A stretch of DNA of 64,000 nt from contig CAYYJS010000001.1 in assembly GCA_964472315.1 (NCBI GenBank), forward strand, positions 60,046 through 124,045, in the 5' to 3' direction. The notes beneath the pieces were generated by a model. That model was not told the DNA's origin. It searched no databases and saw nothing but the letters and a program-made list of their open reading frames with translations. Position 1 is the stretch's first letter, and each line of letters begins with the position of its first letter. This document shows, one piece after another, positions 6,633-21,810 of the stretch. The stretch comes from an uncultured Victivallales bacterium. GTDB taxonomy: Bacteria > Verrucomicrobiota > Kiritimatiellia > UBA8416. Position numbers and translations under genes: made by a program.

Positions 6633-6639
6633 ATGCTGT

Positions 6640-6668: not shown

Positions 6669-6785
6669 CCCGTATTGCTGACGGGTCTCTGGACTACAAA
6701 CGGGGAGGGGATCGGTGGACGAGAGCGGCGGCGAGAGCGGTGGACGAGATGATGGATTCCCAATAGTGGCCCGCTCTCGTCACGG

Positions 6786-7100
6786 TCATGCTGCGACCGT
6801 TTGCTGGTATAGATACTTCTGAAAACCGGAGAAGGCTTTGTTGATCTCTTCGGGACGGCCACCGAGGTCCGCTACTGCATCCGCAAGGGAGTTGTGATAC
6901 TTGAGCAGCAGCAGCGGAGTGAGTTTCTCCTGATCGAGTTCTTCCACGCCGACCGTGATGTAGTGCTGGAGGACGAAATCGAGGAAGAGTTGCTGCTTGG
7001 CATTGAACCGGGTGTTGATGTGGACCCGTGCATGCGCGGCGCGGACTTCTCGGGTGACCGGTGGCATGGCGTAGGCGACGTGGGCCAGCACGTCGAACAG
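6786..7100 (-). pseudogene. hsdR: C-terminal remnant of a type I restriction endonuclease R subunit (EcoEI/EcoAI-type C-terminal domain)
   Basis: LFDVLAHVAYAMPPVTREVRA...KQQLFLDFVLQHYITVGVEELDQEKLTPLL..KY..SLADAVADLG...FSGFQKYLY resembles the HsdR C-terminus. The nuclease and helicase domains are absent, and similarity ends at the promoter region of the next operon. Confidence 0.75.
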
Positions 7101-7136
7101 GCCTTCACGAAGTCGTTTAGGAACACTCTCGACCGC

Positions 7137-7165
7137 TTGTCAATCGCCACCGCGTGTTCTACTCT
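7137..7165 (+). promoter_or_regulatory. Putative sigma70 promoter of the transporter operon
   Basis: TTGTCA (7137-7142), 17-bp spacer, TACTCT (7160-7165), about 70 bp upstream of ATG 7233. Confidence 0.55.
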
Positions 7166-7232
7166 AACCGCCTGATAAGCGCGTGAAGATGCAGCCGCCC
7201 CCCCCCGTGAGGCAGCGAAGGAACAGAACCGC

Positions 7233-9851
7233 ATGGTCATCCAAGACAGTCAGCGAGTCCGCCCGGGACTGACCGTGCGGTCCTTTGTCGTCACGCTCTT
7301 CGCGCTCCTGCTGATGGGGATATGGATCGAATACGAGGAACTCTACAACGCCTATGGCGGCCCGCTGGCCGAGAACGTGCCTCCGAACAGCGCCGTGGGG
7401 GTCATCTGCGCCCTGCTGGTCGTCAGCACCGGTCTCTACATGGTCCGCCGGTCGCTGCGTTTGATGGCGTCCGAGCTGGTGGTCATCTACGCCGCGCTGC
7501 TTCTGGCCGCCCCCCTCATGACACAGGGCATGTGGCATCGTCTGTTCGGTCTGGTCGCGGCCATTCCCCATCACCAGGATTTCAAGTCCTACGACAGCCT
7601 TCCGCCCATGCTCTGGCCGCACGGACCGAACCTCGTCCGGAACGGCACATTCGACGAAGGCCTGGCCGGATTCCGGCACGAAGCCGGCGGGACGGTAACG
7701 TGGCAGGCGATCGACCGCGGCGGGAAGGGCGTCTGGAAGAGTCCGGTGCTGAGCAACGACGGCGACCCGCGGGCGCGGGCGGCGCTGGTTCTGGAGATTC
7801 CGCGACGCGACGCGCGGGGTGTCGAGCAACTCGTTCCCGGCGAAGCCTATCTGTTCGCGCTGCTCGTCAAGGCGGATGGCTTCGCAAAGGGATCCGCCTG
7901 CCTGGTTACGGCGCAGGCGGATGACGGCTTCCCGACGCCCATCGTCGTCAGTCCCGAAAGCACCCAGCCGACGTTCGCGATGCCCTCGGGCTTCCGGCGC
8001 GTCGGCGTGAACCCGTTCAACGTCCCCGTGGAGCTGAAGGAACGGCTGATCCTGCGCATCGCCCTGACGGGCGAGGGCACGCTGGCCGTGCAGGACGTTC
8101 AGTTCTTCAGCATGGAAGCCGTGGAGCGCGCGTTTTCCGGGCGGCGACGCGTGTCCGAAAGCCGTCTGACGGAACTCGGCGCGGACGAACGCGACTCCAC
8201 CGTCGTCAAGCCCGACCGCATGTTCAGCCTCGCGGGCGTGACATACCTGGTGACCGGCTTCATTCCCATGGGCCAGTGGGCCAGGCCGATGTTCGCGTGG
8301 GGATCGCTCATTGCCGCGCTGTTTCTGGGGTTGCTGGGGCTCAGCGTCCTGATGCGCAAACAGTGGGTGGAACACGAGCGCTTCACATTTCCGCTCAACA
8401 TTCTACCCAAGGCGCTGTTCGCCGAGGCGACGGACGACGCGGGGCGTGTGCGCCTGCCCATCTTCCGCAACCGCGTCATGTGGCTCGGCTTTGCCGTCAC
8501 GCTGCCGCTCGTGCTGCTCAAGGGCATCCGCTTCTACTTCCCGGGCCTTCCGGGTCCGACCTCGGCGAATATCGATTTCGCCTCCTTCGTGACCAGCCCG
8601 CCGGCCAAGGCCTATCTGGCGGATGTCGGGATCGGTACGACCATCAACGTGGGACTGTCATTCTGTCTGCTGGCGATCGTGTTGCTGATCGAGACGGATG
8701 TGCTGTTCTCGTTGTGGGCCACGTTTCTGCTCTTCCGTCTGTGGAACCTGTTCGGGTTGCTGTTCCACTTCAACCGGTTCCCCGGATACCCGTGGGAGCA
8801 CCAGCAAACCATGGGGGCGTACATGGCCTATGCGCTGCTGGCCGTCTTCGTGGGGCGGCACCATCTGGGCAAGGTGTTCCGGACCGTGCTGCGGCGCGGC
8901 GGGAGCGGTGTGGACGACGCCGACGAAGTCGTTTCCTACCGGACGGCACTGCTGCTGATCGCGGGATCGCTGATCGCCATCACGGCATGGAGCATCTGGG
9001 TCGGCATGGGGGCATCGGCGGGGCTGCTGTTCTTCGGATACATCCTGCTGTGCGGCTTCGTGGCATCCCGCATTCGGGCCGAATGCGGCGCGCCGATCGG
9101 GTATCTGACGCCCTACTTCGGCATGCAGTTTGTGGCGGCCATGGGCGGGATCGCGGTCTTCAAGTCGACCGGCATGCTTGTGGCGGCGATCTGCAGCGGG
9201 TTCATGTGCACCGTCTGCTTCCTGCTGATCGCGCCGGCGCAGGTGGAGATGATGGAACTCGGGCGCCACTTCAACGTGCGGCCGCGGGATATCGGCGCCG
9301 GTCTGACGCTGGGACTCGTGGGCGGCGTGGTCATCGGCGGGTTCGTGCTGCTGTGCTGGTTGTATGGATTCGGCGCCGACAATCTGCGAACGCCCTGGCC
9401 CTACGATCAGAACTGGTACTTCGCCGGGTTCCGGAGCGAGGCGACGGCCGCCGATCGCGCGTTCGAGGCTGGAACCATCGGCTGTAACCCGGAAACGCAA
9501 CCGATGAACGTCATGCGCAATCCCAATGCCAAGGGATTGGGGGTCGGCGCCCTGATGACGTTTGCGCTCGCGGGGCTCCGCAGTCGCTTTGTCTGGTTCC
9601 CGTTCCATCCGCTGGGGTATGTGCTGGCATCCACCTTCTTCATGAAAGGGGTCTGGTTTGTCATGTTCCTGGCCTGGCTGGCGCGCAACCTGGTGTTCAA
9701 GATCGGCGGTGCGCGGTCGATTCGCCACGGGCTGGCGCCGTTCGCCATCGGCATGTTCCTGGCCTGCATCGCGTCGATCGTGTTTTTCGATATCGCGGGC
9801 ATTTGTTTGAGAACCCAGGGCGTCGTGGATATCTACAGCCGAATCCCTTAG
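7233..9851 (+). CDS. Polytopic membrane protein, DUF6785/DUF6784-like (putative peptide/oligosaccharide transporter), with an inserted soluble CBM-like domain
   Basis: Many hydrophobic helices; LMRKQWVEHERFTFPL, RIRAECGAP and WFPFHPLGYVL motifs; soluble beta-rich insert beginning GPNLVRNGTFDEGLAGF. Confidence 0.7.
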   Translation: MVIQDSQRVRPGLTVRSFVVTLFALLLMGIWIEYEELYNAYGGPLAENVPPNSAVGVICALLVVSTGLYMVRRSLRLMASELVVIYAALLLAAPLMTQGMWHRLFGLVAAIPHHQDFKSYDSLPPMLWPHGPNLVRNGTFDEGLAGFRHEAGGTVTWQAIDRGGKGVWKSPVLSNDGDPRARAALVLEIPRRDARGVEQLVPGEAYLFALLVKADGFAKGSACLVTAQADDGFPTPIVVSPESTQPTFAMPSGFRRVGVNPFNVPVELKERLILRIALTGEGTLAVQDVQFFSMEAVERAFSGRRRVSESRLTELGADERDSTVVKPDRMFSLAGVTYLVTGFIPMGQWARPMFAWGSLIAALFLGLLGLSVLMRKQWVEHERFTFPLNILPKALFAEATDDAGRVRLPIFRNRVMWLGFAVTLPLVLLKGIRFYFPGLPGPTSANIDFASFVTSPPAKAYLADVGIGTTINVGLSFCLLAIVLLIETDVLFSLWATFLLFRLWNLFGLLFHFNRFPGYPWEHQQTMGAYMAYALLAVFVGRHHLGKVFRTVLRRGGSGVDDADEVVSYRTALLLIAGSLIAITAWSIWVGMGASAGLLFFGYILLCGFVASRIRAECGAPIGYLTPYFGMQFVAAMGGIAVFKSTGMLVAAICSGFMCTVCFLLIAPAQVEMMELGRHFNVRPRDIGAGLTLGLVGGVVIGGFVLLCWLYGFGADNLRTPWPYDQNWYFAGFRSEATAADRAFEAGTIGCNPETQPMNVMRNPNAKGLGVGALMTFALAGLRSRFVWFPFHPLGYVLASTFFMKGVWFVMFLAWLARNLVFKIGGARSIRHGLAPFAIGMFLACIASIVFFDIAGICLRTQGVVDIYSRIP

Positions 9852-12800
9852 ATGCGCATGCACAAACAGGACATCGCGGGCCAGTTGCCCGTGGCCGGCC
9901 TTTTCGCGGTGCTGACCGTGGCGGCCCTGTACGGCTTCGTGCGTTTCGCGGAACCGGACGAGCGTATGCCGCGGCGTCGGTTCCGGGAGGACTATGACGA
10001 ACGGCCGCTGGCGGACCTGCTGTCCGCGCACGGCTTCGAGGATCGCATGCGGGAGATTGCCGCGGCGGGTTCCGCTCCGGGCGAGGCGGGTGTCGGCCGG
10101 ATGAGCGGAAGCCCGGGGTTCTACCGCGCCGAGCGGTTCATCCTCGACCACTACCGCGCCGCGGGACTCGACATCACGACCCAGGAACTGCCGGTCGTCG
10201 TGCCGGTGACCGAGGTGTGCGAGATCCTTGACGCGGAGGGCCGGCCGCTCGACGGGGTGCGCATCCATCCCGTCGAACCCGGCGGGATCCTCCCCACGGC
10301 CTTGCCCGAGGAGGGCATTGTCGGGACGCTCGTTGCGGCCGAAAGCGCCGCGCCGGAGCATCTGGGCGGACACCCGGCCGAATCCGCGATCGTCCTGACC
10401 ACGCTGGACGGCGCGTCCGAGTGGCCGGATCTGGCCTCGGTCGGGGTCAAGGCGCTGCTGGTCAGGGAGGAACGCGAGGACATCCGGCGTGTCATGCGCA
10501 CGAGCCCGGATCGGCAGGAACACTGGGGCGGCGTGACCACGCCGCAGCCGGTCGTGTTCCCGCGCTTCCTGGTGCGGGGGCCGATCGAGCGTTACGCCGG
10601 TCAGACGATCAGGTTGCGTTGCCGGGTGGCCTGGCAGGCCCGAATCGTCCGCAACCTTATCGGGGTGCTGCGCGGCGACCGGCCCCGGCGGGAAGCCCTG
10701 GTGCTCTCATGCTTCTATGACAGTTCCTCGACGGTTCCGGATCTGGCGCCCGGCGCGGAACAGTCGATTTCCCTCGCGGCCATGTTGGAGTATGTGCGCG
10801 GCCTGGCGCCCTATCGCAAGGACATGGAGCGGGACATCGTCTTCGTCGCCGCCGCGGGCCATTGCCAGTCCATGGCCGGCGAGCACCGACTGCTGGAGGC
10901 CGTGGAAACCGTCAGCGCCCGCAGGAAGGACCACCGGACGTTCGAGGCGCGCAAGGCGGAGCAGCGGCAGGCGCTCCAGTTTGCCACGCGGGGCCTGGCC
11001 TTTCTGGAGCGCCCCGAACTGAACAGCGGCGACGCCGCGGCGGACGGCGCGGCGCTCAAGACACGCTGGGCGGAGGAACCGGCGGACTTCCGCGCGTGGA
11101 TGGCCGAGCGGCTCGAGACCGTCGCCGGCGAAGTCTGTCTGGCGCGCAAGGAAGAGGCGCTGCAGGCCAGATTGGCCCACCTGCGGGCGGGCGCGCCGGC
11201 GTTCCGCGACGGCTTTGACGAACTAACCGCGACCGACGCCGAACGGCGGGACGCCGCCTATACGCATCCCCTGCTCGCGGCCTATATCGCCGTCAAGGCG
11301 CTGGAAAACCGCGCGGCCCACATGGTGTCGCTGCCACTGGATCGGCTCGCCGAACGGGTCGAATACAGGGCGTGGGGCTACGCCGCCCGGCTCGCCGCCT
11401 ACCTGGAGACGCTCGCGGCGTATCACCGTCAACAGCTTCGCGAGATCGACGATCTGATTGCGGTGCGCGATTTGTTCGGTCGCTACGACGGCATGGTGAC
11501 GGTTGTTCTCGACCTCTATTCGGGCGGGTACCGGAAGTTGAGCGACCTGGCCGTGCTGGTGGGAGTCGGCAACATCGGCACCGTGGTCGAGCCGCAGGTC
11601 AGCGATCTGGCCGGCGCGATTCGGGAGCAGGCACCCGCGACGGATGGCGTGCCGGCTTTCGCCGTGGTCAACTGGGGAAGCCTGGACGCGAGCGGCAGGC
11701 GGGAGACGCCGAACCACAACACCCAACTGGCCTCGTCGTTCTGGTACGCCTGCAACCGCCTCGCCTTCACGGTTGCCAACCGCGAATACGCGCCGGGCGC
11801 CGCGACGCGAATCGCTTCGCCGGAAGACACGGTGGATAACCTGCGCCAGACCGACGTGCTCCGCCTGCACATCCCGGCGATCGGCAAGGCCCTGCTGGCG
11901 ATGGCCCACGGTCGCGTAACCTGCAAGCCCCTGACCATGGCGGCATCGCGCGGCCGCATATCGGCGCTGCACGGCGGCGTGTACGCCAACGTCGGGGTTT
12001 CCGACATGGTGGCGGGCCACCGCATGGGAAGCCGGACGTTCGTCCAGGTGGCGGGCGATCAGGGGTTGACGAGTCAGCGGGGCATCCGGGTGTCGCCCGT
12101 TCTGGACGTCAACCCGTATGGCCGATACGACGCGGCGATCACGATGCTGTTGCCCCCCGTGTTCACCGTGACCGCCGCGCGGTTCGGTCAGGATGGCCGG
12201 GTCCTTTTCATCACGGACGATTCGCCCGCCAGTCAGGCGGTGTTCAAGAACCGCGACATCGACGCGAAGAGCGTGAACGTGCGCGACGCGCAGGCGCCGA
12301 AGCCCGTGAACATGGCCCTGTTCCGCTGCGCCCCGGTGTCGCTCTTCGACCGGGGCAACCCCACCACCATGCGGGGCTTCAAGCAGGTCATGTACCTGAC
12401 GCGCGAGGGTTTGTCCGCCCCGCCGAACCTGCACCAGGTCGCCCCGACGGCGTTTACGGCGTTTCTGCCGCCGGAGACGGTGTTCTACATCGGCCTGCGG
12501 GACGGCGCGGCCGGGAATCCGGAAGTGCAGAGCTACCGCGCCTTCATGTTGAATGTCGATCCGGCCGAGCCGATCGCGGTGGACGAACCCGAGCTGCACG
12601 GCGCCGGCTACCTTGCCGCCGACGCGGGAACGCTGGTACACCCGCACCTCGACGCGGCGGCATCCATGTTGCGCACGGCGGAGAAGCGGCTCGACCTGCA
12701 ACGCCGCTTCGGCATGGCCGACAAGCAGATGCTCCAGTTCCACGCGCGCGGGAACGAATGGCTGGCCGATGCGCGCGCGAAGCGGGCCGATCGCGATGCG

Positions 12801-15125
12801 GGGGGGGCGCTGAGTTCGGCGGCGACGAGTCTCGCCTATGCCATCAACAACCACCCCGTGATCCGCAAGCGCATCGCGCATGCCGTGGTCGGTATCCTGT
12901 GGTATCTCGGCCTGCTCGTGCCGTTCGTGTTCTTCTGTGAGAAACTCGTCTTCGGCTTCTCCGACATACGCAAGCAACTGGTCGCGGGCGGCGGCATCTT
13001 CCTGGCGGTGTTCGCGCTGCTGCGCGTCTTCCATCCCGCCTTCCAGATGGTGCGTTCGTCGTCGATGATCCTGCTGGGGTTCGTCATGCTGCTGCTGACC
13101 GGCCTGGTGACCTGCATGGTGGGCGGCAAGTTCCGGCGGAACATCGAGGACGCGCGGGCGCGGGCGGGCGCCGGGAAGGGCGCCGACATCGACCGCGGCG
13201 GCGTGGTGGGGACCGCCTTCATGCTGGGCCTCAACAACATGCGCCGCCGCAAGGTGCGTACCGGACTGACATGCGCGACGCTGGTGCTCATCACCTTCGT
13301 CATGATCTGTTTCACCTCGGTGTCGAACGACCTGGTCAACGTGGAATACGCCACGGGGCATTCGGCCTGGAACGGCATCGCCATCCGGGATCCGGACTTC
13401 GTGCCCCTGGATGACTCCGAGGTCGCCGCGGTCGAACGGCTTTACGGCGGCCGTTACCCGATCGGCCGGCACCAATGGCTTCTGCCGTCGATGACCGTCT
13501 GGGACGGGAATACCGACCACATCAAGAACCTGGAACTCGCCGTCGATCACGAGCTGGTCGTGGCCGGTGTGAAGGCGCTGAAGCGGGCGCGCGCCGGCAG
13601 CGTGGTCGCCATGGAGTGGAACGAGCCGGCTTTTTCGGGCATCGACGAATGCCTTCTCACCGATCGCGGCTGGTTCGAGCGTCCGCCCCGGACCCGCGCG
13701 GAGAAGATCGCGGCCGCGGAAGCGGGCGCCGAGCGCGGCAAGGAAGCGATTCTGCCGGATACCATGGCGCGCGAGCTGGGCATTTCGGTTGCCGATGTCA
13801 ACACGCGCGCGCCGACGGTGAGCATCCAGGGCGACGAGTTCGTGGTGCGGGGGATTATCGATTCGGTCGCGTTGAACAAGCGACTCGGCCTCGATGGCGA
13901 ACCCTTGTTCCCCTATGACCTCAACAGCGTCCAGACCCTGGGGATGCGGCGGCGGCCGGAGGGCGGCCAGATGGCAGTTGTCCCGGCCGACATCGGCCGT
14001 CTGCCCGCGTCGGAGGTTGTCCTCGCCAACGCCATGCCGGTGCCCCAGTCGGGGCAGACGATTGCCACCATGTCCTGTTCGGTGTTGTTCCCATCCGCGC
14101 CGTACAGGCTCGGGCCGGACGAGCCGGAGCGCCCCGCGGTTGGCTATCGCGAGCAGCGCCGCGTCGCGCTGGAGTTCCTCGAACGCACGGGCAAGCAGGC
14201 TTACTATGCCCTGGACGGCGTCGCGTATTGCGGGTCACGCAAGCGGACCCGGACGCTGGGCGGCATGCTGGAGCTTCTGGTGCCGATCGTCATCGCGGCG
14301 CTGGCGGTGTTCAATACGATGCGCGGCTCCGTGTATGAGCGGCGCGGCGAGATCCAAGTCTACAATGCCGTCGGCATCGCCCCCAACCACGTCTTCTTCA
14401 TGTTCATGGCCGAGGCCCTGGTGTACGCGGTCATGGGTGCCATGCTGGGCTACCTGCTCAGCCAGGCGACCGGCCGCGCGCTCACGCTGGCCGGCCTCGC
14501 CGGCGGCCTCAACATGGACTACAGTTCGATCGAGACGATCTACGCCTCGCTGGCCATCATGGGCGCCGTGCTGCTCTCCGCGGTACTGCCCGCGCGCGAC
14601 GCCGCGCGGATGGCCGCGCCGTCGGAACTGGCCAGTTGGACGGTGCCGCGCGTGGACGGCGACGTGATGACGCTGAACCTGCCGTTCACGTTCACCGCGC
14701 ACGACCGGGTCGCCGTGGTCGGCTATTTCGCCCGCTGGCTCGACGCCAACGGCGTGGGCGGTTCGGGGCCGTTCTTCTGCTCCCCGCCCGAACCGTTCGC
14801 GCGGGTGGAGGCGGCGCAGGCGCCGGACGATCGGCTCGTGCCGGGGGTGCGCGGCCAGGTCTGGCTCAAACCGTATGACCTCGGGGTTTCGCACCGCATG
14901 GAGTTTTCCCTGCCCACCGATCCGGAAACCGGCGAATATGTCGCGCGCATCGGGCTGACGCGGCTGAGCGGCCACGCCGCGGCCTGGCGTCGCACGGTGC
15001 GGCCGTTCCTCGGGACGTTGCGCAAGCAGTTCCTGAACTGGCGCGCGACCACGGACGCCGAGCGCGGCGAGCTGTTCGCCGAGGCCAAGGCGATGCTCGA
15101 GCGGCAACGCGATACGGAAAGTTAG
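9852..15125 (+). CDS. Giant (1757 aa) FtsX-type ABC permease with an N-terminal M28-peptidase/nicastrin-like extracytoplasmic region
   Basis: N-terminal TM; RMSGSPG, NLIGVLRG...LSCFYDS...LAPGAEQ, RDIVFVAAAGH (M28-like fold); internal TM bundle; NNMRRRKVRTGLT (MacB-like); SVYERRGEIQVYNAVGIAP..VFFMFMAEA FtsX domain. Starts immediately after the previous stop. Confidence 0.8.
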   Translation: MRMHKQDIAGQLPVAGLFAVLTVAALYGFVRFAEPDERMPRRRFREDYDERPLADLLSAHGFEDRMREIAAAGSAPGEAGVGRMSGSPGFYRAERFILDHYRAAGLDITTQELPVVVPVTEVCEILDAEGRPLDGVRIHPVEPGGILPTALPEEGIVGTLVAAESAAPEHLGGHPAESAIVLTTLDGASEWPDLASVGVKALLVREEREDIRRVMRTSPDRQEHWGGVTTPQPVVFPRFLVRGPIERYAGQTIRLRCRVAWQARIVRNLIGVLRGDRPRREALVLSCFYDSSSTVPDLAPGAEQSISLAAMLEYVRGLAPYRKDMERDIVFVAAAGHCQSMAGEHRLLEAVETVSARRKDHRTFEARKAEQRQALQFATRGLAFLERPELNSGDAAADGAALKTRWAEEPADFRAWMAERLETVAGEVCLARKEEALQARLAHLRAGAPAFRDGFDELTATDAERRDAAYTHPLLAAYIAVKALENRAAHMVSLPLDRLAERVEYRAWGYAARLAAYLETLAAYHRQQLREIDDLIAVRDLFGRYDGMVTVVLDLYSGGYRKLSDLAVLVGVGNIGTVVEPQVSDLAGAIREQAPATDGVPAFAVVNWGSLDASGRRETPNHNTQLASSFWYACNRLAFTVANREYAPGAATRIASPEDTVDNLRQTDVLRLHIPAIGKALLAMAHGRVTCKPLTMAASRGRISALHGGVYANVGVSDMVAGHRMGSRTFVQVAGDQGLTSQRGIRVSPVLDVNPYGRYDAAITMLLPPVFTVTAARFGQDGRVLFITDDSPASQAVFKNRDIDAKSVNVRDAQAPKPVNMALFRCAPVSLFDRGNPTTMRGFKQVMYLTREGLSAPPNLHQVAPTAFTAFLPPETVFYIGLRDGAAGNPEVQSYRAFMLNVDPAEPIAVDEPELHGAGYLAADAGTLVHPHLDAAASMLRTAEKRLDLQRRFGMADKQMLQFHARGNEWLADARAKRADRDAGGALSSAATSLAYAINNHPVIRKRIAHAVVGILWYLGLLVPFVFFCEKLVFGFSDIRKQLVAGGGIFLAVFALLRVFHPAFQMVRSSSMILLGFVMLLLTGLVTCMVGGKFRRNIEDARARAGAGKGADIDRGGVVGTAFMLGLNNMRRRKVRTGLTCATLVLITFVMICFTSVSNDLVNVEYATGHSAWNGIAIRDPDFVPLDDSEVAAVERLYGGRYPIGRHQWLLPSMTVWDGNTDHIKNLELAVDHELVVAGVKALKRARAGSVVAMEWNEPAFSGIDECLLTDRGWFERPPRTRAEKIAAAEAGAERGKEAILPDTMARELGISVADVNTRAPTVSIQGDEFVVRGIIDSVALNKRLGLDGEPLFPYDLNSVQTLGMRRRPEGGQMAVVPADIGRLPASEVVLANAMPVPQSGQTIATMSCSVLFPSAPYRLGPDEPERPAVGYREQRRVALEFLERTGKQAYYALDGVAYCGSRKRTRTLGGMLELLVPIVIAALAVFNTMRGSVYERRGEIQVYNAVGIAPNHVFFMFMAEALVYAVMGAMLGYLLSQATGRALTLAGLAGGLNMDYSSIETIYASLAIMGAVLLSAVLPARDAARMAAPSELASWTVPRVDGDVMTLNLPFTFTAHDRVAVVGYFARWLDANGVGGSGPFFCSPPEPFARVEAAQAPDDRLVPGVRGQVWLKPYDLGVSHRMEFSLPTDPETGEYVARIGLTRLSGHAAAWRRTVRPFLGTLRKQFLNWRATTDAERGELFAEAKAMLERQRDTES

Positions 15126-15133
15126 AAGAGGTC

Positions 15134-17137
15134 ATGGCCGACACCCGCAAACCGCTCGTACTGGACAAGGAACTCGAAGTCTACCGTTCCGTCCTGGAGA
15201 CCCCCACCGAGTTCCGCAACGGCTTCACCTGGGTCGCCGTGGCCGGCGCCTTCTTCTGCGGTTTGCTGATGATGCCCGGGGCCATCTACCTGAGCCTGGT
15301 GACCGGTGGCGGCATCGCCGCCGCATGGGTCACGCTGATCATCTTCTCCGAGGTCAGCCGCCGGGCCATGCGCACGCTCAGTAAGCAGGAACTGGTGATC
15401 CTGCTGATGGTGGCCGGAGCCATGGCGGCCGGCGGACCGATCGGGGATCTGGTCTGGCGGCAGTATCTGGTGCGTAGCGATGCGGTGCGCGACATCGGTC
15501 TGCTGGGCCAGTTCCCCGCCTGGTACGCGCCGTCGCCGACCAGCGACGCGATCACGGGCCGCAGCCTCCTGCACGCGGCCTGGCTCGTGCCGGTTGTCCT
15601 GATGTTCTTCATGCATGTGGTCGGCACGGTGAAGTACTACACACTGTCCTACTTCTTCTTCCGCCTGACGTCAGACATCGAGCGGTTGCCGTTCCCGTTC
15701 GCGGGAATCGGCGCGCAGGGGTCGATGGCCCTGGCCGAATCGGGCGAACGCAAGGCGACCTGGAAGTGGCGCGTATTCTCCCTGGGCGGCATGATGGGAC
15801 TGGTTTACGGGGCGATTCAGATCGGCGTGCCGCTGGTGAGCGGCGCTCTGTTGACCCGGCCGATCCAGATTATTCCGTTGCCCTGGTACGACGCCACCAC
15901 ACTCACCGAGGGTATCCTGCCCGCAACGCCGACCGGGGTCGTGGTCGACCTTGGCCTGGTCATCGTCGGCATGGTGATCCCGTTCTGGGCGGTCATGGGG
16001 CAGGCGGCCGCCATCGTGCTGACGCTGGTCATGAACCCGATCCTGTACCACATGGGGATCCTGACACGCTGGCAGCCGGGCATGGAGACGGTGGCCACGA
16101 CGTTCGGCAATTCCATCGACTTCTGGATGAGCTTCGGGTTCGGCGTCATGGGCGGGATCATGGTCGTATCGGTTTTCCAGACCGGGCGCGATTTGACCCG
16201 GAAGATACGCGAGCTGCGCCGTCGAAGACGCGAGGAGGCGGATATGCCGGCGCGCCGCGAGAACGTCTGGGATACGCCGCCGGGGCGCGGCGACTTCTCG
16301 CCCTGGATCGCGCTGGCCCTGTACGCCGTGTGCGCGTTGCTGACCATCGGCGTCTGTCACCTGCTGGTGCCCGGGTTCCCCCTGTTCTTCCTCTTCGCGT
16401 TCACGTTCCTCTACACACCGCTGATGTCCTACATCAACGCGCGTCTGGTCGGAATCTGCGGCCAGCATGTTCAGATCCCGTTCGTGCGCGAAGCCGCGTA
16501 CATCCTGTCCGGCTACAAGGGTGTCGAGATCTGGCTCGCGCCGATTCCCGTCGACGACATGGGCACCGGCGCGCAGGCCTTCCGGACGAACGAACTCACG
16601 GGCACGAATTTCTGGTCCTACGTCAAGGCCCAGTCGCTCATCATCCCGCTCTGCTTCGTCCTGAGTTTCGTCTTCTGGGGATTCATCTGGAAATCCGGCG
16701 CGATTCCCTCGCAGATGTACCCCTTCGCCGAAAAGATATGGGACCTCCGCGCCAAGAACACCGTCCTGATGTACTCGGCCACCCTCGACCTCGAAGGCGC
16801 TGCGCCGTTGTTCTTCCAGGCGCTGCACCCGAACGTGATGGCCGGCTCGTTTTCGTTCACGATGCTCGGCTTCACGATCATGTCCGCTTTGCGCATGCCG
16901 ATCATGGCCATCTACGGGTTTGTCCAGGGCGTCGGCGCCATGCCGCACGGGTTCGTTCCGATCGTGATCGGGGCACTGATCGGGAAGTTCTGGTTTCACA
17001 AGCGGTTCGGTCAGAAACGGGTTTTGGAAGTCGTGCCGGTGCTCGCCGCCGGTTACGGTACCGGAGTCGGATTGATCGCCCTGATCGGCGTGGCGCTTAA
17101 CCTGATCGTATCGGCGGTGTCGGCGCTGCCGTTTTAG
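15134..17137 (+). CDS. OPT-like (oligopeptide transporter) polytopic membrane protein
   Basis: Highly hydrophobic, 667 aa; GFTWVAVAGAFFCGLLMMPGAIYLSL, FRLTSDIERLPFP, SGYKGVEIWLAP. Confidence 0.7.
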   Translation: MADTRKPLVLDKELEVYRSVLETPTEFRNGFTWVAVAGAFFCGLLMMPGAIYLSLVTGGGIAAAWVTLIIFSEVSRRAMRTLSKQELVILLMVAGAMAAGGPIGDLVWRQYLVRSDAVRDIGLLGQFPAWYAPSPTSDAITGRSLLHAAWLVPVVLMFFMHVVGTVKYYTLSYFFFRLTSDIERLPFPFAGIGAQGSMALAESGERKATWKWRVFSLGGMMGLVYGAIQIGVPLVSGALLTRPIQIIPLPWYDATTLTEGILPATPTGVVVDLGLVIVGMVIPFWAVMGQAAAIVLTLVMNPILYHMGILTRWQPGMETVATTFGNSIDFWMSFGFGVMGGIMVVSVFQTGRDLTRKIRELRRRRREEADMPARRENVWDTPPGRGDFSPWIALALYAVCALLTIGVCHLLVPGFPLFFLFAFTFLYTPLMSYINARLVGICGQHVQIPFVREAAYILSGYKGVEIWLAPIPVDDMGTGAQAFRTNELTGTNFWSYVKAQSLIIPLCFVLSFVFWGFIWKSGAIPSQMYPFAEKIWDLRAKNTVLMYSATLDLEGAAPLFFQALHPNVMAGSFSFTMLGFTIMSALRMPIMAIYGFVQGVGAMPHGFVPIVIGALIGKFWFHKRFGQKRVLEVVPVLAAGYGTGVGLIALIGVALNLIVSAVSALPF

Positions 17138-17147
17138 AGAGAGGGAT

Positions 17148-18167
17148 ATGGACATCATTGGTACTCAGGTCACGCTGCCCTTCCGGCGGGCGTTCGCGAT
17201 TGCCGTGCGCGGCATCCGCATCCGTCTCGGCCGGTCGCTGGTGACGGTCTCGGGCGTGGTTCTCGGGATCGCCTTCCTGATGAGCAACCTGACCGCGCAG
17301 CTCGTCAAGACGGCCATCGGCGAGGAGCGCGGGCGGCGGCAGACCGTCGAGCTGATGATGAGTCAGGTCCGGGCGGAGGTTGGCACGGTCGAAGGCCGGA
17401 CGGTGGCCGTCGCGGTTTTCGGGCGGATCAGCGAGACCGAGCGCGCGTTCCTTGCCAGAGTCAAGGCCGGCGCGCCCGCGACCTTCCGGGCGATGGGCAT
17501 CGACATGGACGGGTTGACTCCCGCCACGGCACGCACCCTCGGGGAGGGCGCCGCGTTGCTCTTCGTGGTCGGCGATGCGGTGACGGTCTCCGCCTCGCTT
17601 GGCGAACTCGCCGGCGGCATGGCCGGCAGCGTCGTACTGGATACGGTGGCCTCCCGCACCTTCGCCGAGGGGACCGCCTCCGGGATCGGACGCGAACCCT
17701 TTTTCGGCCGGCAGGCCCGCGAGGAACAGGCCGAGATCGCGGAGGCGGCGCGCGAGGAACGCTTCCGGATCGCGTGGATCGTCGCGGTATCGCTCCTGGT
17801 CACGGTTGCGACCGTGGCCAATGCCCTGCTGATGTCGGTGACCGAGCGGTTCCGCGAGATCGGCGCCATGAAATGCCTGGGCGCCCTGTCCGCGTTCATC
17901 CGCACGCTGTTTCTCATCGAGAGCGCCCTGATTGGTCTGGTCGGGTCGCTGCTGGGCGTGTTGGCGGGTGCGTCGCTGACCCTCGCGATCTACGGCCTGA
18001 CGTACCGGTTCGGCCTGATCTTCGGTTCCGTCGACTATGGGTGGTTGGCCTGCGCGGCCGCGGGCGCCGTCGCCTGCGGCACGGCGATGGCCATGATCGC
18101 GGCGATCTACCCGGCACGGGTGGCGGCCCGCATGATGCCGGCGGCGGCTTTGCGAAGCACGGTGTGA
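17148..18167 (+). CDS. Small FtsX-like ABC permease
   Basis: IRIRLGRSLVT N-terminus; NALLMSVTERFREIGAMKCLGA..AFIRTLFLIES; C-terminal YPARVAARMMPAAALRS. Confidence 0.85.
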   Translation: MDIIGTQVTLPFRRAFAIAVRGIRIRLGRSLVTVSGVVLGIAFLMSNLTAQLVKTAIGEERGRRQTVELMMSQVRAEVGTVEGRTVAVAVFGRISETERAFLARVKAGAPATFRAMGIDMDGLTPATARTLGEGAALLFVVGDAVTVSASLGELAGGMAGSVVLDTVASRTFAEGTASGIGREPFFGRQAREEQAEIAEAAREERFRIAWIVAVSLLVTVATVANALLMSVTERFREIGAMKCLGALSAFIRTLFLIESALIGLVGSLLGVLAGASLTLAIYGLTYRFGLIFGSVDYGWLACAAAGAVACGTAMAMIAAIYPARVAARMMPAAALRSTV

Positions 18168-18174
18168 GAACAAG

Positions 18175-18957
18175 ATGACCACGGACAGTCAATGGCATGC
18201 CCTCTTTCGCGGCGAGCACGAAGCCGGCAAGTTGGACCATGTGATCCGGGCGGTCGACGTTCGCAAGGTGTACCGGATGGGTGACGGTGAAACCCATGCC
18301 CTGGCGGGGGTGTCGCTGGACGTTCGGCGCGGCGAGTACCTGTCCATCATGGGGCCGTCGGGTTCGGGGAAGAGCACCTTCTTCAACATGGTCGGCGGGC
18401 TCGATAAACCGACGTCCGGGAAGGTCTACATCGACCAGGTCGACATCGCCCAACTCGACCCGTACGAGCTTGCCTGGCTGCGCTGCCGGAAGGTCGGGTA
18501 CATCTTCCAGACCTTCAACCTGATCCAGGTGATGTCGTGCCTGGAGAACGTGACGTTGCCGATGGCGTTTGCCGGCATGGACAGCGACGACGCGCGGGAC
18601 AAAGCCGTCGACATTCTGAAGCGCGTCGGTCTTGGCGACCGCGCCCTGCACAAGCCGGCCGAGATGTCCGGCGGACAGCAGCAGCGCGTGGCCATCGCGC
18701 GCGCGCTGGCGAACGATCCCGATATCCTGCTCGCCGACGAACCGACCGGCAATCTCGACCTCAAGACCGGCGAAGAAATCATCGCGTTATTCTCCAATCT
18801 CCGCGAGGAACTGGGCGTGACGATCGTCACGGCGACGCATGACCTGAAGATGCTCAAGACATCGGATCGGATCGTGTGGATCGAGGACGGGTTGATCGCG
18901 CGGATCAGTACGCCGGAGGCCATGGGCATCGAGGTCGAAGAGGTTGGAGGGAGGTAG
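18175..18957 (+). CDS. ABC transporter ATP-binding protein (LolD/MacB-like) 1
   Basis: Walker A GPSGSGKST, Q-loop IFQTFNL, signature MSGGQQQR, Walker B ILLADEPTGNLD, H-loop ATHD. Confidence 0.95.
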   Translation: MTTDSQWHALFRGEHEAGKLDHVIRAVDVRKVYRMGDGETHALAGVSLDVRRGEYLSIMGPSGSGKSTFFNMVGGLDKPTSGKVYIDQVDIAQLDPYELAWLRCRKVGYIFQTFNLIQVMSCLENVTLPMAFAGMDSDDARDKAVDILKRVGLGDRALHKPAEMSGGQQQRVAIARALANDPDILLADEPTGNLDLKTGEEIIALFSNLREELGVTIVTATHDLKMLKTSDRIVWIEDGLIARISTPEAMGIEVEEVGGR

Positions 18958-18962
18958 CGCCG

Positions 18963-19349
18963 ATGTCCCGACCCCGCAGGAACAAGCAGACGCCGCGCCC
19001 CGCGATCCGTGACCCGTTCGCGGTGGTGCCGCTGATCGCCGACCGTGTGGACATGCGCTTCGATAGCGCCGGTCACGCCCATCTGCGTCTGCGGCCGGCA
19101 CTCGGGGGACTGCGCGGGAAGGTGGCGGCATGGTTGCGGTACGACTACGCGCGCAAGGTACAGTTGGACGACTGTGGAACGCTGTTCATGGGCATGGTCG
19201 ACGGCCGCAACCGGCTGCGCGACATCGTCGAGCGCATGGCCGCCGATTCGGGCAAGGACCGCAAGGATGTCGAAGAAGGCGTCATCGTGTTCACCAGGAA
19301 GCTGATGACCATGAACATGCTCGTGTTGCGGGTCGAAGACAAGGAGTAG
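18963..19349 (+). CDS. PqqD-family protein (RiPP recognition element fold)
   Basis: RKVQLDDCGTLFMGMVDGRNRLRDIVERMA...VIVFTRKLMTMNML matches the PqqD pattern; start ATG 18963 after GGAGG. Confidence 0.75.
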   Translation: MSRPRRNKQTPRPAIRDPFAVVPLIADRVDMRFDSAGHAHLRLRPALGGLRGKVAAWLRYDYARKVQLDDCGTLFMGMVDGRNRLRDIVERMAADSGKDRKDVEEGVIVFTRKLMTMNMLVLRVEDKE

Positions 19350-19352
19350 GGG

Positions 19353-20111
19353 ATGGCTGCCAGCGTCATAGCGCGTGTGTGCGATGTAACCCGCCGGTAT
19401 CGGCTGGGAGGCGGGGACGTCCGGGCGCTCGACGGCGTGTCGATGGACATCTACGAGGGCGAGTATCTATCCATCATGGGGCCATCCGGTTCGGGTAAGA
19501 GCACGCTTTTCAACATGATCGGCGCGCTGGACGTGCCCACCTCCGGCGCCATCGAGTTCATGGGAACCGATCTATTCTCGCTGCCGGAGGCGAAGCAGGC
19601 GTGGATTCGCTGCAACCAGATCGGCTACATCTTCCAGACGTTCAACCTGATCATGGCGATGACCGCGTTGGAGAACGTCACGCTGCCGATGCTGTTGCGC
19701 GACGACCCCCCGGCGCGGGCCGATGCGCGCGGCAAGGAGATTCTCGATCGCGTGGGCCTGGCCCACCGCCTGCATCACCTGCCCGACCAGCTTTCCGGAG
19801 GCCAGCGCCAGCGCGTGGCCATCGCGCGGGCCCTGGCCAACAACCCGAAGGTCATCCTCGCGGACGAACCCACGGGGAACCTCGACGCCAAGACCGGGCA
19901 GGAGATCATCGACCTGCTGCACCGGTTGCGGCGGGAGCGGAACGTCACGATCGTCACCGCGACCCACGACGCCAAGATGCTCCGGATATCCGACCGCATC
20001 GCATGGATGCGCGACGGCAAACTGGAGCGTATCGAAAAGCGCGAGGAGTTCCGGATCAAGGTCGGAGGGATGAAGGCGAACATGTGCCCGGAATGCTGGG
20101 GACCGGACTGA
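19353..20111 (+). CDS. ABC transporter ATP-binding protein (LolD/MacB-like) 2
   Basis: GPSGSGKST, IFQTFNL, LSGGQRQR, ILADEPTGNLD, ATHD. Confidence 0.95.
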   Translation: MAASVIARVCDVTRRYRLGGGDVRALDGVSMDIYEGEYLSIMGPSGSGKSTLFNMIGALDVPTSGAIEFMGTDLFSLPEAKQAWIRCNQIGYIFQTFNLIMAMTALENVTLPMLLRDDPPARADARGKEILDRVGLAHRLHHLPDQLSGGQRQRVAIARALANNPKVILADEPTGNLDAKTGQEIIDLLHRLRRERNVTIVTATHDAKMLRISDRIAWMRDGKLERIEKREEFRIKVGGMKANMCPECWGPD

Positions 20112-20177
20112 CCTGGTTGACCGGACTGACCTGGTGTGTTGACCCTATTGCCAATGTGGTCAATAAGGTCAACAAGG
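20101..20177. repeat. Tandem 18-bp repeat (GACCGGACTGACCTGGTT/G x2) followed by counter-oriented 9-bp units (GGTCAATAA GGTCAACAA)
   Basis: Directly visible; the first unit contains the ATPase stop codon. Confidence 0.6.
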
Positions 20178-20198
20178 GCATTTCTCACTTTGTTGCGC

Positions 20199-20340
20199 TC
20201 ATGCCGGCCGCGTTCCTTTGCAGTTCGGGAAGGCGGAGCAGCCCCAGAAATCGCCCTTCGCGGACTTCCGCTGGCGCATGGGCTTGCCGCACTGGGGGCA
20301 GTCGGGCGCCTCGGCGGCCTTTTGTTCTTCGCGCGCCCTA
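20199..20340 (-). pseudogene. Start-less C-terminal fragment with a topoisomerase-type C4 zinc finger (as on four-helix-bundle suffix proteins)
   Basis: Manual translation gives RAREEQKAAEAPDCPQCGKPMRQRKSAKGDFWGCSAFPNCKGTRPA*. There is an in-frame stop upstream (about 20391-20393) and no start codon ahead of the finger. Not in the ORF track. Confidence 0.65.
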
Positions 20341-20569
20341 CTTCGCGAATATCGTCCACTGGTTCGCGACCTCGGCGAACTGCGAGCGGTTCATGCGGTG
20401 GAGCGGTTCCGATCCGACGATGTACGTCGTATGCGCCGTGGCGCTGTTCCTCTCCGCGGGTGCGCAGTGGATCGTGACGGGGGCGAGGGGCCGGGCAAAC
20501 GGAGCGCGCGGCCGGCACGTGTAACGGATTCCTGTTGCCGATGCGTGGCGATTCTGCAATCGTTCCCGC

Positions 20570-21803: not shown

Positions 21804-21810
21804 GGTGGTG

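Follow-up and report, generated by a model that had tools for sequence, protein, structure and literature searches.

What defines a Type VII ABC system is its partner proteins, some of which are embedded in the membrane, for instance in BceAB-BceS; none of the characterised systems serves import, all of them acting outward or within the periplasm (PMC12646458). In this group (YbbAP-TesA, FtsEX-EnvC, LolCDE-LolA, MacAB-TolC and BceAB-BceS), the FtsX-type units carry an ectodomain between TM1 and TM2, and ATPases of the LolD/MacB/FtsE type are encoded alongside the permeases. Both features were found in a cassette of seven genes (g1 to g7) within the 64,000-nucleotide stretch of DNA analysed here (the window). 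Two unlike permeases, g2 and g4, are encoded as in the case of LolC/LolE, and g2 contains TM helices beyond the basic four, as described for YbbP (PMC12646458). As in Type VII systems, the function of the cassette is probably set by the partner proteins.

The cassette differs from the known systems in several respects. Its partners are two polytopic membrane proteins of transporter fold, and our literature searches found no Type VII system described with such partners; neither did they find a functional study of the seven-gene system, in agreement with the first-pass annotation, which knew of none. The giant permease g2 differs by a PA/M28-like head of ~970 residues, a conserved 3-TM block and a cytoplasmic tail; two different ATPases take the place of the homodimer; and no gene for an adaptor, TolC, or a LolA-like or EnvC-like protein is included. 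With the LolC/E, FtsX and MacB equivalog models, the scores stayed far under the cut-offs. TRAP and TTT are binding-protein-dependent secondary transporters, in which an extracytoplasmic receptor feeds a permease of secondary-transporter fold. The likeness to these is in concept only and implies no homology. In the cassette, the receptor belongs to an ABC permease driven by ATP, and the fold of the secondary-transporter-like permease is that of OPT.

We tentatively propose, at somewhat less than an even chance, that the seven genes specify one membrane system, in which a Type VII ABC engine works with OPT-fold partners for the import of peptide- or glycopeptide-like compounds. At first pass, the operon had been read as a single large membrane complex in which an ATP-driven FtsX module loads or gates OPT/DUF6785 translocators for peptides, glycopeptides or oligosaccharides, and that reading is partly supported. 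The engine would be an asymmetric Type VII (MacB/FtsX-fold) ABC mechanotransducer, with the giant g2 and the small g4 as a permease hetero-pair driven by the ATPase hetero-pair g5/g7, and its partners would be located in the membrane, not in the periplasm: g3 as an elevator-type permease and g1 probably as a second OPT fold. The g2 head would capture the peptide- or glycopeptide-like ligand in the periplasm, ATP binding and hydrolysis would set the head and ectodomains in motion through mechanotransmission, and the OPT-fold permeases would then take the ligand and carry it inward across the cytoplasmic membrane. Gene structure, folds, the loss of the canonical zinc site, synteny and strict co-occurrence are observations of this analysis; that the proteins touch one another, that transport is inward and what is carried are inferred. 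If true, such an import-feeding role would be the first for a Type VII ABC system, which counts against the proposal.

Organization and distribution of the cassette

The seven genes lie contiguously on the + strand, with gaps of 0, 8, 10, 7, 2 and 3 bp when the ATG start of g6 is taken, and the ORF list thus bears out the 0-10 bp spacing reported at first pass. The one promoter-like site of that annotation was not reproduced. A consensus scan of positions 5500-22000 gave 2 sites, against 2.2 +/- 1.2 in shuffled sequences, neither of them immediately 5' of g1; the + strand site (6617-6644) is 590 bp from g1, with an opposite-strand ORF between. By eye, only a weak promoter-like site, TTGTCA-17 nt-TACTCT (7137-7165, + strand), was recognized 68 bp 5' of the g1 ATG, and its score of 8/12 is under the threshold of the scan. 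On the 3' side, a weak terminator-like hairpin (20301-20315) with a T-rich tail (to 20325, + strand) was detected ~190 bp downstream of g7, in a region where the terminator count of 7 was not above that of shuffles (9.0 +/- 2.5).

The seven-gene set is a real conserved module. We collected 88 related loci, of which 56 include at least 8.5 kb upstream, 58 at least 3.4 kb downstream, and 45 both flanks. Full-length g3 was identified in 81 of the 88. Upstream, g2 adjoins g3 in 52/56 loci, and g1 is also present in 51/56; downstream, g4 was found in 53/58 and the two ATPases likewise in 53/58. All of g1, g2, g4 and both ATPases surround g3 in 39 of the 45 loci with both flanks. The gene set is far beyond chance, and the same order was observed in dozens of other genomes. 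Beyond the cassette, no conserved neighbours were detected, any one flanking family being common to at most 3 of 21 loci. The occurrence of similar sets in other PVC and Armatimonadota genomes, suggested at first pass, was confirmed and extends to Planctomycetota and Sumerlaeota, the gene order being kept across at least four phyla. The genome of the window itself carries a second, rearranged cassette with the same components, and a further order, ATPase-g2-g3-g1-g4-ATPase, was found in locus L095, so that three different orders share the same parts list.

Co-occurrence had been named beforehand as the test on which the reading could fail, and the outcome was strongly positive: when 301 genomes of the phylum were screened, the profiles of g3 and of the g2 3-TM block matched an identical set of 44 (44 vs 44), in which the two matches share a contig, lie 2-4 kb from each other and agree in copy number. 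This result bears on the explanation that the operon simply houses, without any functional link, a MacB-like exporter of the ordinary kind and two unrelated secondary transporters. One locus (L035) with g3 alone speaks for it, but the identical phyletic profile, the order kept across phyla, the three orders with the same parts and the non-conserved flanks bring it close to refuted, and we give it hardly any weight. Two further loci (L072 and L083) contain g3-g4-ATPase-ATPase only; the occurrence of g3 relatives without g1-g2 in all three loci counts against the import reading.

Up to 4-5 copies of the cassette are present per genome, and well-supported paralogous subfamilies exist within the family. 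Together with the patchy spread (44/301), these features suggest that the role is accessory and of a nutrient type, rather than one in core envelope biogenesis.

The giant permease g2 and its peptidase-like head

The g2 gene (9852-15125) encodes a protein of 1757 aa, for which Pfam, hydropathy, alignment and structure modelling indicated the order N-terminal TM anchor, periplasmic PA/M28-like head, 3-TM block, MacB/FtsX-type unit and cytoplasmic C-terminal domain. Pfam matches were obtained for FtsX (8.2e-14, residues 1476-1587) and for Peptidase_M28 (7.8e-5, residues 268-344; 22.9 bits against a cut-off of 21.3). The head (residues 35-1005; 9954-12866) is composed of a PA/M28 aminopeptidase fold, a helical insert of ~180 residues and a further beta-rich region. 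Its structure model (pLDDT 87.9, pTM 0.88) matched 2ek8 in Foldseek at 2.6e-15, followed by PaAP, BSAP, TfR and GCPII, and in VIA gave a Z of 25.0 to 1cp7_A, the alignment covering 256 of 274 residues at 2.4 A.

The canonical zinc-ligand positions of this fold are substituted in both 18 close and 17 diverse relatives. Neither of the canonical His ligands is present in any of these 18 + 17 sequences, and the Glu-Glu pair is lost. The designation of g2 as a pseudo-peptidase at first pass was therefore apt, in that a peptidase-fold head lacks the canonical M28 site according to model, Foldseek, VIA and site columns. Searched against PDB sequences, the head profile matched nicastrin best (3.9e-6), and among 18 relatives Pfam matched M28 in 17 and Nicastrin (large lobe) in 11. 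Like g2, nicastrin and the transferrin receptor carry an M28/PA-fold ectodomain without the zinc site on a membrane complex. The profile alignment with nicastrin spans the motif DS-S...APGAE and the region of the DYIGS motif of nicastrin; the similarity covers ~76 residues only, however, M28 itself scores better in Pfam, and g2 is bacterial, fused to an ABC permease and without a presenilin-type partner. The likeness could reflect either common descent or parallel loss of the site. Because the canonical two-zinc site is lost and nicastrin is similar, the g2 head most likely binds rather than cleaves.

A different use of the head is conceivable, in which the head, switched on by the ABC cycle as in FtsEX-EnvC and YbbAP-TesA, would use a remodelled M28-like site to trim peptides, for example stem peptides of peptidoglycan or glycopeptides, and the products would enter through the OPT-fold proteins. 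The M28 fold is complete, and all 17 diverse relatives keep His at the catalytic-Glu position and Asp/Glu at both the bridging-Asp position and the next acidic ligand position. These conserved His and two acidic positions in the wider family count against the binding-head reading, since a remodelled active site is possible. The giant protein of the second in-genome cassette carries LysM, a peptidoglycan/chitin-binding module, in its head, and there are Type VII systems by which hydrolases are controlled or fed (PMC12646458). Against such an ATP-regulated periplasmic hydrolase stand the loss of both canonical His ligands and of the Glu-Glu pair, the non-catalytic receptor nicastrin as the closest solved sequence relative, and the third acidic position, which is variable within the window's own g2 subfamily. 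We consider the hydrolase unlikely.

The best conserved part of g2 is not the head but residues 990-1170 (12819-13361), which comprise three extra TM helices and, after an amphipathic stretch on the cytoplasmic side, TM1 of the FtsX unit. Identity to the window copy per 50-residue block is 0.74-0.80 there, against 0.31-0.62 in the head; mean column identity of the 3-TM alignment (A5) is 84%, and with its profile, 1234 clusters of the representative library were matched at E<=1e-3. This segment is a candidate docking site for the partners. For the extracytoplasmic domain between TM1 and TM2 (residues 1158-1468; 13323-14255), the window copy matched no Pfam family, and MacB_PCD was matched at the same position in 8 of 28 relatives. 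The FtsX domain with TM2-TM4 follows (residues 1476-1587; 14277-14612). The C-terminal domain (residues 1590-1757; 14619-15122) is without TM segment and presumably cytoplasmic; it has conserved blocks across 18 homologues and matched no Pfam family at E<=5.

The OPT-fold partners g3 and g1

The 667-aa membrane protein g3 (15134-17137) has no match in Pfam, and none of 19 family members reached PF03169 even at E<=1. Its structure model (pLDDT 82.1), however, matched 7wst/7wsr in Foldseek at 1.9e-10 and 7.7e-10 with TM-scores of 0.59-0.66, the next match being at 9.3e-3, and VIA gave a Z of 20.7 to 7wsr_A (barley YS1) in an alignment of 547 of 600 residues; no other chain among the 48,161 reached Z>=5. 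The whole fold is thus in common with the OPT/Yellow-Stripe-like family (PF03169; HvYS1, PDB 7WSR/7WST), at a sequence identity of 13-15% to barley YS1, and the OPT-like assignment of the first-pass annotation holds at the level of fold. The known members are stand-alone proton symporters outside ABC operons, whereas g3 is encoded within one. With a median identity to relatives of 70%, g3 is the best conserved membrane component of the cassette.

These properties of g3 bear on a sensor or regulatory role, in which the ABC unit, like BceAB, serves to sense or detoxify a compound active on the envelope, and signalling or accessory functions, instead of transport, fall to the OPT-fold proteins. 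BceAB-BceS is a precedent of a Type VII ABC system with a membrane partner for sensing (PMC12646458), and the large receptor-like g2 head could bind a ligand without transport. The conservation and complete transporter fold of g3 argue against this role, as does the finding that neither the cassette nor any conserved flank contains a signalling gene, such as one for a kinase or a response regulator, and we regard this role as quite doubtful.

The 872-aa polytopic protein g1 (7233-9851) has many TM segments by hydropathy and matched DUF6785 (7.9e-75) and DUF6784 (1.1e-20) in Pfam, both of which were matched in all 14 family members. Comparison with OPT by hhalign gave E values of 0.011-0.015 at a probability of 3-4%, by which an OPT fold of g1 is not established, a point against the import reading, and PF03169 was reached by 0/14 members even at E<=1. 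From these leads, g1 is probably a very distant second member of an OPT-like superfamily. Of the two different secondary-transporter-like proteins noted at first pass, the OPT fold of g3 stands, but the two are probably distant members of one superfamily rather than different kinds. Barley YS1 is a proton-coupled elevator-type importer that forms a homodimer (PMC9691689); since it works as a dimer of elevator-type protomers, g1 and g3 may by analogy pair with each other.

Between TM3 and TM4, g1 contains a hydrophilic insert (~residues 100-345; 7530-8267), with no TM segment over residues 100-355, which would be periplasmic. The insert matched no Pfam family at E<=5; CBM_4_9 clusters were among its nearest neighbours in the Atlas (score 0.82), a lead that makes a carbohydrate-binding-module-like beta domain possible. 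This weak lead, the LysM of the paralogue and an F5/8 type C domain in one g2 relative are hints to the ligand. As a point against the import reading, the hints at glycan binding were obtained with paralogues and single relatives and not with the window copy.

The small permease, the ATPases and the PqqD-fold protein

The 339-aa g4 (17148-18167) is a small FtsX-type permease (Pfam FtsX, 2.1e-13) with, by hydropathy, TM1, an ectodomain of ~160 aa and TM2-4. Two ABC ATPases of the LolD/MacB/FtsE type are encoded by g5 (260 aa, 18175-18957; ABC_tran 2.7e-34) in the first position and g7 (252 aa, 19353-20111; ABC_tran 7.6e-36) in the second. Their best NCBIfam models are LolD, MacB and FtsE, all under the equivalog cut-offs, including LolD at 4.1e-67 for g5 and 6.4e-70 for g7. 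The two are 58% identical, and the alignment shows Walker A, signature, Walker B-Glu and H-switch in both, so that each looks catalytically competent from its sequence. Pfam, NCBIfam and alignment accordingly agree with the two FtsX permeases and two distinct LolD-type ATPases recognized at first pass.

For g6, the ORF is readable from a GTG (18876-19349), and its first ATG at 18960 gives a protein of 129 aa (18960-19349) without TM segment. The window copy reached Pfam PqqD at ~3.2e-4 to 4.8e-4 (20.8 bits), below the cut-off of 23.4; PqqD was matched by 17/17 relatives (best 3.9e-7), and the profile matched PDB 3g2b PqqD at 7.3e-8. The orphan PqqD/RRE assignment is thereby upheld, and no RiPP genes were found nearby. 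The gene is an optional accessory, present in 41 of 58 loci, in most of them between the two ATPase genes, and absent from 17, which indicates that it is not essential to the mechanism.

The position and fold of g6 speak for export or envelope trafficking, by which the OPT-fold proteins would move a cytoplasmic peptide or lipid-linked envelope precursor outward, with g6 as chaperone of the peptide, and the Type VII module would extract or push the product off the outer leaflet, like LolCDE, MacB and YbbAP. PqqD/RRE domains bind peptides in the cytoplasm, and the outward or periplasmic-side action of the characterised Type VII systems noted above (PMC12646458) points the same way. On the other side, the cassette has no precursor peptide, maturase, membrane-fusion protein or TolC gene and no conserved flanks, g6 is dispensable in the 17 loci, the one solved OPT-fold protein considered is an importer (PMC9691689), and the patchy, multi-copy spread is unlike that of core envelope biogenesis. 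Export appears improbable to us on this balance. A cytoplasmic PqqD/RRE protein by itself fits export of a cytoplasmic peptide more naturally than import; in the proposed import system, g6 would be an optional cytoplasmic adaptor that binds a peptide segment, of cargo or of a subunit tail.

Organization and co-inheritance of the gene set

Seven open reading frames, g1 to g7, lie on the plus strand of the window between 7233 and 20111, and code for proteins of 872, 1757, 667, 339, 260, 129 and 252 residues, the length of g6 being counted from its first ATG at position 18960. The products are a DUF6785/DUF6784 membrane protein (g1), a giant permease (g2), a predicted OPT-fold protein (g3), a small FtsX-type permease (g4), two LolD-like ATPases (g5 and g7) and a PqqD-fold protein (g6). 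With this start of g6, the intergenic gaps from g1 to g7 are 0, 8, 10, 7, 2 and 3 bp, and the ORF listing agrees with the first-pass annotation, which described seven near-contiguous genes with gaps of 0 to 10 bp. The single promoter-like site described there was not recovered by a consensus scan of the operon region; inspection by eye revealed only a weak TTGTCA-17-TACTCT at 7137-7165.

Conservation of this gene set (hereafter the cassette) was analyzed using loci collected with g3. Contigs representing one genome per species were searched twice, yielding 35 and 80 loci (88 distinct); the second search counted 365 relatives in all. After seven loci with truncated g3 were left out, 81 loci were tallied, and the tally is conditional on the presence of g3. 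Directly upstream of g3, g2 was found in 52 of the 56 loci with at least 8.5 kb of upstream DNA, together with g1 in 51 of the 56. Downstream, g4 and the two ATPases were each found in 53 of the 58 loci with at least 3.4 kb. For g6, tblastn indicated its presence in 34 of the 58 loci and a profile HMM added 7 more; as it is present in 41/58 loci only, g6 is considered accessory. The flanking genes included no family common to more than 3 of 21 loci, and the unit is therefore concluded to begin at g1 and to end at g7. Median identity to the window proteins within the closer subfamily was 78% for g5, 71% for g7, 70% for g3, 58% for g1, 52% for both g2 and g4, and 45% for g6.

In locus L018, g2 is located about 1.7 kb further off, and L035, L072 and L083 are without g2; by profile search, the membrane block of g2 was absent from the fetched DNA of L072, L083, L035, L075 and L078. 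In the Opitutales-type loci L072 and L083, the order g3-g4-ATPase-ATPase is kept, with neither g1 nor g2 within 10 kb upstream. Separate encoding of the two halves of the system is therefore possible. A second, paralogous cassette is present on another contig of the same genome (L005, C59, 3908-16925) in the rearranged order ATPase, DUF6785/6784 protein (973 aa), giant FtsX protein (about 1944 aa), g3-like protein (683 aa), short FtsX-like protein and ATPase. The giant protein of L005 carries a LysM domain at residues 295-337, beside the M28-like region, and no PqqD gene was found in this cassette. One MAG contains both a full cassette and a g1-g2-g3 triad without ATPase nearby (L010, L015). 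The g3 tree separates two subfamilies (support 0.995 and 1.0), which may co-exist in one MAG, and a distant group that contains the in-genome paralogue.

The source bins of the loci belong to Lentisphaerae, Kiritimatiellia, Verrucomicrobiota, Planctomycetota, Armatimonadota and Sumerlaeota. Similar gene sets had been considered possible in other PVC and Armatimonadota genomes, and this is borne out by g3 loci from such bins, g1, g2, g4 and both ATPases being present in 39 of the 45 loci with both flanks. Synteny and phylogenetic profiling, proposed at the first pass as a check, gave a consistent picture: the parts are kept around g3 in these 39 loci, and the profiles of g3 and of the three-TM block of g2 matched the identical 44 genomes among 301 sampled from the phylum. 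The two kinds of match in these 44 genomes share their contigs, where 2-4 kb separate them, and agree in copy number, which reaches 4-5. Mere co-location of independent genes is nearly excluded by the phyletic profile and the synteny data. It is established here that an asymmetric MacB/FtsX-type ABC unit with a receptor-like M28/PA head (residues 35-1005 of g2) is strictly co-inherited with OPT-fold and DUF6785 proteins.

Permease unit, ATPases and the head of g2

Both permeases matched the FtsX-type permease domain PF02687 above the cut-off, g2 at 8.2e-14 (TM2-TM4) and g4 at 2.1e-13. Hydropathy shows g4 to be a minimal permease of the FtsX type, whose ectodomain has about 160 residues. The hydropathy profile of g2 opens with a single N-terminal TM helix and a hydrophilic stretch of about 980 residues. 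Three TM helices at 1011-1090 come next, and then a short basic loop that ends in a MacB-type 'LGLNNMRRRKVRTGLT' stretch. TM1 of the FtsX unit is separated by an ectodomain of 310 residues from three further TM helices, which constitute the Pfam FtsX domain, and the protein closes with a tail of 170 residues. We infer a topology with the N-terminus inside, in which the head and the ectodomain would be periplasmic and the tail cytoplasmic. Neither g2 nor g4, with TM1-TM2 segments of about 310 and 160 residues, gave a Pfam match to the MacB periplasmic-core domain (PF12704), and no Pfam family was detected at E<=5 for the ectodomain, the C-terminal domain or the beta-rich region of g2. Conservation within g2, compared among 18 homologues, is highest in the extra three-TM block and in the FtsX helices, with identities to the window of 0.73-0.81 per 50-residue block, as against 0.31-0.62 in the head.

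The profile of the g2 membrane block matched 1234 clusters at E<=1e-3, 1017 at E<=1e-10 and 380 at E<=1e-30 in a representative library of 50% identity clusters, most of them 1450-1935 residues long. The family is large, and extends over Verrucomicrobiota sensu lato, Planctomycetota, Armatimonadota and Sumerlaeota, phyla with an important part in the turnover of polymers in freshwater, soil and gut habitats. For domain analysis, 28 relatives were picked for length and divergence from the best 150 of the 1234 clusters. Pfam detected FtsX (PF02687) in all 28, M28 in 21 and the MacB periplasmic core, located between TM1 and TM2, in 8, while an F5/8 type C domain, a PA domain and a rubredoxin domain were each carried by a single relative. 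The rubredoxin domain, at residues 634-679 of the g2 relative P0232, lies inside the presumed periplasmic head, an odd location for an iron-sulphur-type domain.

The two ATPases, 58% identical to each other, are ABC_tran proteins by Pfam, with LolD, MacB and FtsE as the nearest NCBIfam models. Walker A, LSGGQ, Walker B-Glu and the H-switch are kept in both. A phylogenetic tree, in which 59 first-position ATPases and one same-genome paralogue form one clade with support of only 0.21, hints at an ancient split of the two. Identity of the unit with a housekeeping Lol or FtsEX system was considered and rejected: scores were far under the equivalog cut-offs (15-51 bits against 225-966 for g2 and g4; 226-235 bits against 307.75 for g5 and g7 with the LolD model), further FtsX-type genes are present in the genome (10 matches), and the cassette is found in only 44/301 genomes of the phylum.

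Pfam gave a weak Peptidase_M28 match within g2 (residues 268-344), and the single head sequence gave no match to PDB sequences. The structure model of the head (pLDDT 87.9, pTM 0.88) was then compared with known structures. In the Foldseek search, M28 aminopeptidases with a PA domain ranked at the top (2ek8 at 2.6e-15, PaAP and BSAP next), ahead of the transferrin receptor and GCPII. A wide structure search aligned the head with Streptomyces griseus aminopeptidase (1cp7_A; Z 25.0, 256 of 274 residues, 2.4 A) and with the Aeromonas enzyme (1rtq_A; Z 24.6), and from these matches the M28 core of the head is judged to be complete. The core is split by a PA-like domain and a helical insert of about 180 residues; the beta-rich part (model residues about 660-900) was barely covered by the fold searches.

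The two-zinc site of M28 enzymes, which we take to consist of His, Asp, Glu, Asp and His together with a catalytic Glu, was examined in 18 close and 17 diverse sequences, each position being placed by sequence motifs rather than by residue-level structural superposition. In the columns so placed, the HxD motif reads F/Y-Y-D, the first His being replaced by F or Y; GAD, with the bridging Asp, has become GAE, some relatives keeping GAD; in place of the Glu-Glu pair stands His plus one of A, C, F or G; the position of the next Asp is variable in the subfamily of the window and taken by Asp or Glu across the wider family; and the last His is A/G/S/T or Asp. By this motif placing, the canonical two-zinc site is absent from the 18 and 17 sequences. 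Since the canonical ligand positions are replaced throughout, canonical peptidase catalysis by the head is unlikely. A remodelled site may be formed around the invariant His, which belongs to the AGHCQS stretch, and a regulated hydrolase using such a site, coupled with uptake of the products, stands as a rival explanation of the system.

When the profile of the head family was compared with all PDB sequences, the best match was nicastrin, not an active peptidase (3.9e-6 over about 76 residues). The alignment spans 'DS-S....APGAE' and the segment holding the DYIGS motif of nicastrin. Pfam detected PF05450 (Nicastrin large lobe) in 11 of 18 head relatives (best 2.3e-4), more weakly than M28, detected in 17 of 18. 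No cassette protein gave a presenilin-type Pfam match. As a bacterial system open to experiment, it also provides a case of an M28 ectodomain that resembles nicastrin and is probably non-catalytic. A role of the system as a sensor module is a further rival explanation.

OPT fold of g3, possible OPT kinship of g1, and a proposed model of transport

The structure of g3 was modelled from 19 relatives (pLDDT 82.1, pTM 0.83). Foldseek matched the model to the barley transporter YS1 (7wst at 1.9e-10 and 7wsr at 7.7e-10; TM-scores 0.59-0.66), the next match being at 9.3e-3. In an independent all-against-representatives search, YS1 was the sole chain of 48,161 with Z>=5 (Z 20.7 over 547 of 600 residues). 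At the sequence level, g3 matched no Pfam family, its profile matched nothing among PDB sequences at E<=1, and the Pfam OPT family (PF03169, TC 2.A.67) was matched at E<=1 by none of 19 g3-family and none of 14 g1-family members. As the structural match is not accompanied by a PF03169 match, g3 is placed within the OPT/YSL fold but outside the curated family model; on its predicted structure, g3 is an OPT/Yellow-Stripe-fold protein. YS1, the one solved OPT-fold protein, is described in PMC9691689 as a homodimeric, proton-coupled importer of elevator type.

Kinship of g1 with OPT is less certain, and is suggested by leads. Both DUF6785 and DUF6784 were matched by g1 and by all 14 relatives. In the Atlas, DUF6785 clusters rank among the nearest feature neighbours of g3, OPT matches occur in some DUF6785 clusters and DUF6785 matches in some OPT clusters, and PF03169 is found on 17-33% of the members of the nearest clusters. 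No similarity of g1 to g3 was detected by BLASTP. A collinear hhalign alignment over 452 columns, which pairs the invariant 'ERLPFPF' of g3 with 'ERFTFPL' of g1, was not taken as proof of homology, with E-values of 0.015 and 0.011 and probabilities of only 2.9% and 3.8%. The hydrophilic insert of 245 residues after TM3 of g1 matched no Pfam family at E<=5; the CBM_4_9 clusters among its nearest Atlas neighbours (score 0.82) are a lead only.

Fused forms were also searched for. No longer protein containing g3 was found at E<=1e-10, which is weak evidence, and within the best 150 of the 1234 g2-block clusters none has the length needed to hold an OPT-fold protein as well, the maximum being 2098 aa. 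A 2324-aa open frame over the g3 relative G266 was discarded as a chance open frame, g2 being in a different frame.

The window copy of g6 matched PqqD at 21.4 bits, under the Pfam cut-off of 23.4, and Pfam PqqD was detected in all 17 relatives (best 3.9e-7). Against PDB, the g6 profile matched PqqD (3g2b) at 7.3e-8 and, more weakly, a lasso-peptide chaperone at 0.0026. Judged from these family-level matches, g6 is a genuine PqqD/RRE-fold protein, and hydropathy indicated no TM segment. Among the annotated genes of the cassette and the window flanks, families of precursor peptides or maturases (radical SAM, cyclase and the like) were not detected. A role of g6 in a RiPP pathway was rejected on the lack of annotated maturase and precursor genes and of conserved neighbours.

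The classes of Type VII ABC systems are set by the partner: efflux adaptors, LolA, EnvC, TesA or BceS. Conserved pairing with OPT-fold membrane proteins would represent a new functional class. As described in PMC12646458, ATP-driven movements of Type VII systems are passed to the periplasmic side, and the partner proteins, some of them membrane-embedded, specialise each system. In our preferred model, which we advance tentatively, the head would capture a ligand resembling a peptide or glycopeptide, for transfer by the ABC cycle to a g1/g3 pair and import, with g6 as an optional cytoplasmic adaptor. Another rival is export or envelope trafficking, in line with the outward action of all known Type VII systems and with the PqqD protein being cytoplasmic. 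The patchy, multi-copy spread of the cassette and the glycan-binding modules of the relatives (LysM, F5/8 type C) fit nutrient capture better than core envelope biogenesis. Import by the preferred route, if confirmed, would break the rule that Type VII machines never serve uptake.

We also consider, as a rather doubtful proposition, a hybrid of primary and secondary transporter, in which an ATP-driven Type VII ABC unit with a nicastrin-like, catalytically silent M28 'gate' would select periplasmic peptides or glycopeptides and load a heterodimer of g1 and g3 as elevator-type OPT-fold permeases. If true, this would be the first ABC system with secondary-transporter-fold proteins as defining partners, as well as the first membrane machine in bacteria to have a nicastrin-like receptor at its centre. 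The function of the system is open to direct test, because a cultured strain carries a related cassette: the record of Oligosphaera ethanolica DSM 24202 encodes a g3 relative (L097), and the matching locus (L095) has the order ATPase-g2-g3-g1-g4-ATPase.

Current annotations of the components go no further than 'peptide transporter', 'DUF' or 'FtsX-like permease'. Literature searches found nothing on DUF6785 and DUF6784 (PF20581/PF20580) or on a combination of FtsX/Type VII ABC with OPT, M28 or nicastrin, apart from what supplementary gene lists could mention. Papers on FtsX, the OPT family and Verrucomicrobia did not concern this system as judged by title and abstract. No paper was found, and the system is apparently without a published study.

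Genes and sites around the operon

The flanks of the operon in the window carry genes unrelated to the cassette. Just upstream, on the minus strand, are an AbiEii-like nucleotidyltransferase toxin gene (5606-6262) and an ORF of 101 aa (6786-7091) that matches the C-terminal domain of the type I restriction R subunit only, and is probably a gene remnant. Further upstream, on the plus strand, 2332-5539 codes for a flavodiiron-like protein with ODP/metallo-beta-lactamase and flavodoxin domains, and then for a corrinoid activation protein of RACo type, which has a 2Fe-2S domain. On the 3' side, a small ORF of unknown nature, a VTT/DedA-domain gene and, on the other strand, a methyltransferase gene follow the operon. 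Two genes for GH94-family glycan phosphorylases are located on the minus strand at 25639-28071 and 61532-63982, and a protein with a GH42 trimerisation domain is encoded at 59229-61409. Between 31598 and 59186, also on the minus strand, is a long run of large genes (548-1513 aa), several with HEAT repeats or PQQ_2/BamB-like beta-propellers and several without any Pfam family.

Upstream of the operon, promoter-like sites face each other at 6617-6668. At the opposite end, an 18-bp tandem duplication, with a 17-nt unit repeated after one base, spans the stop codon of g7 (20101-20135).
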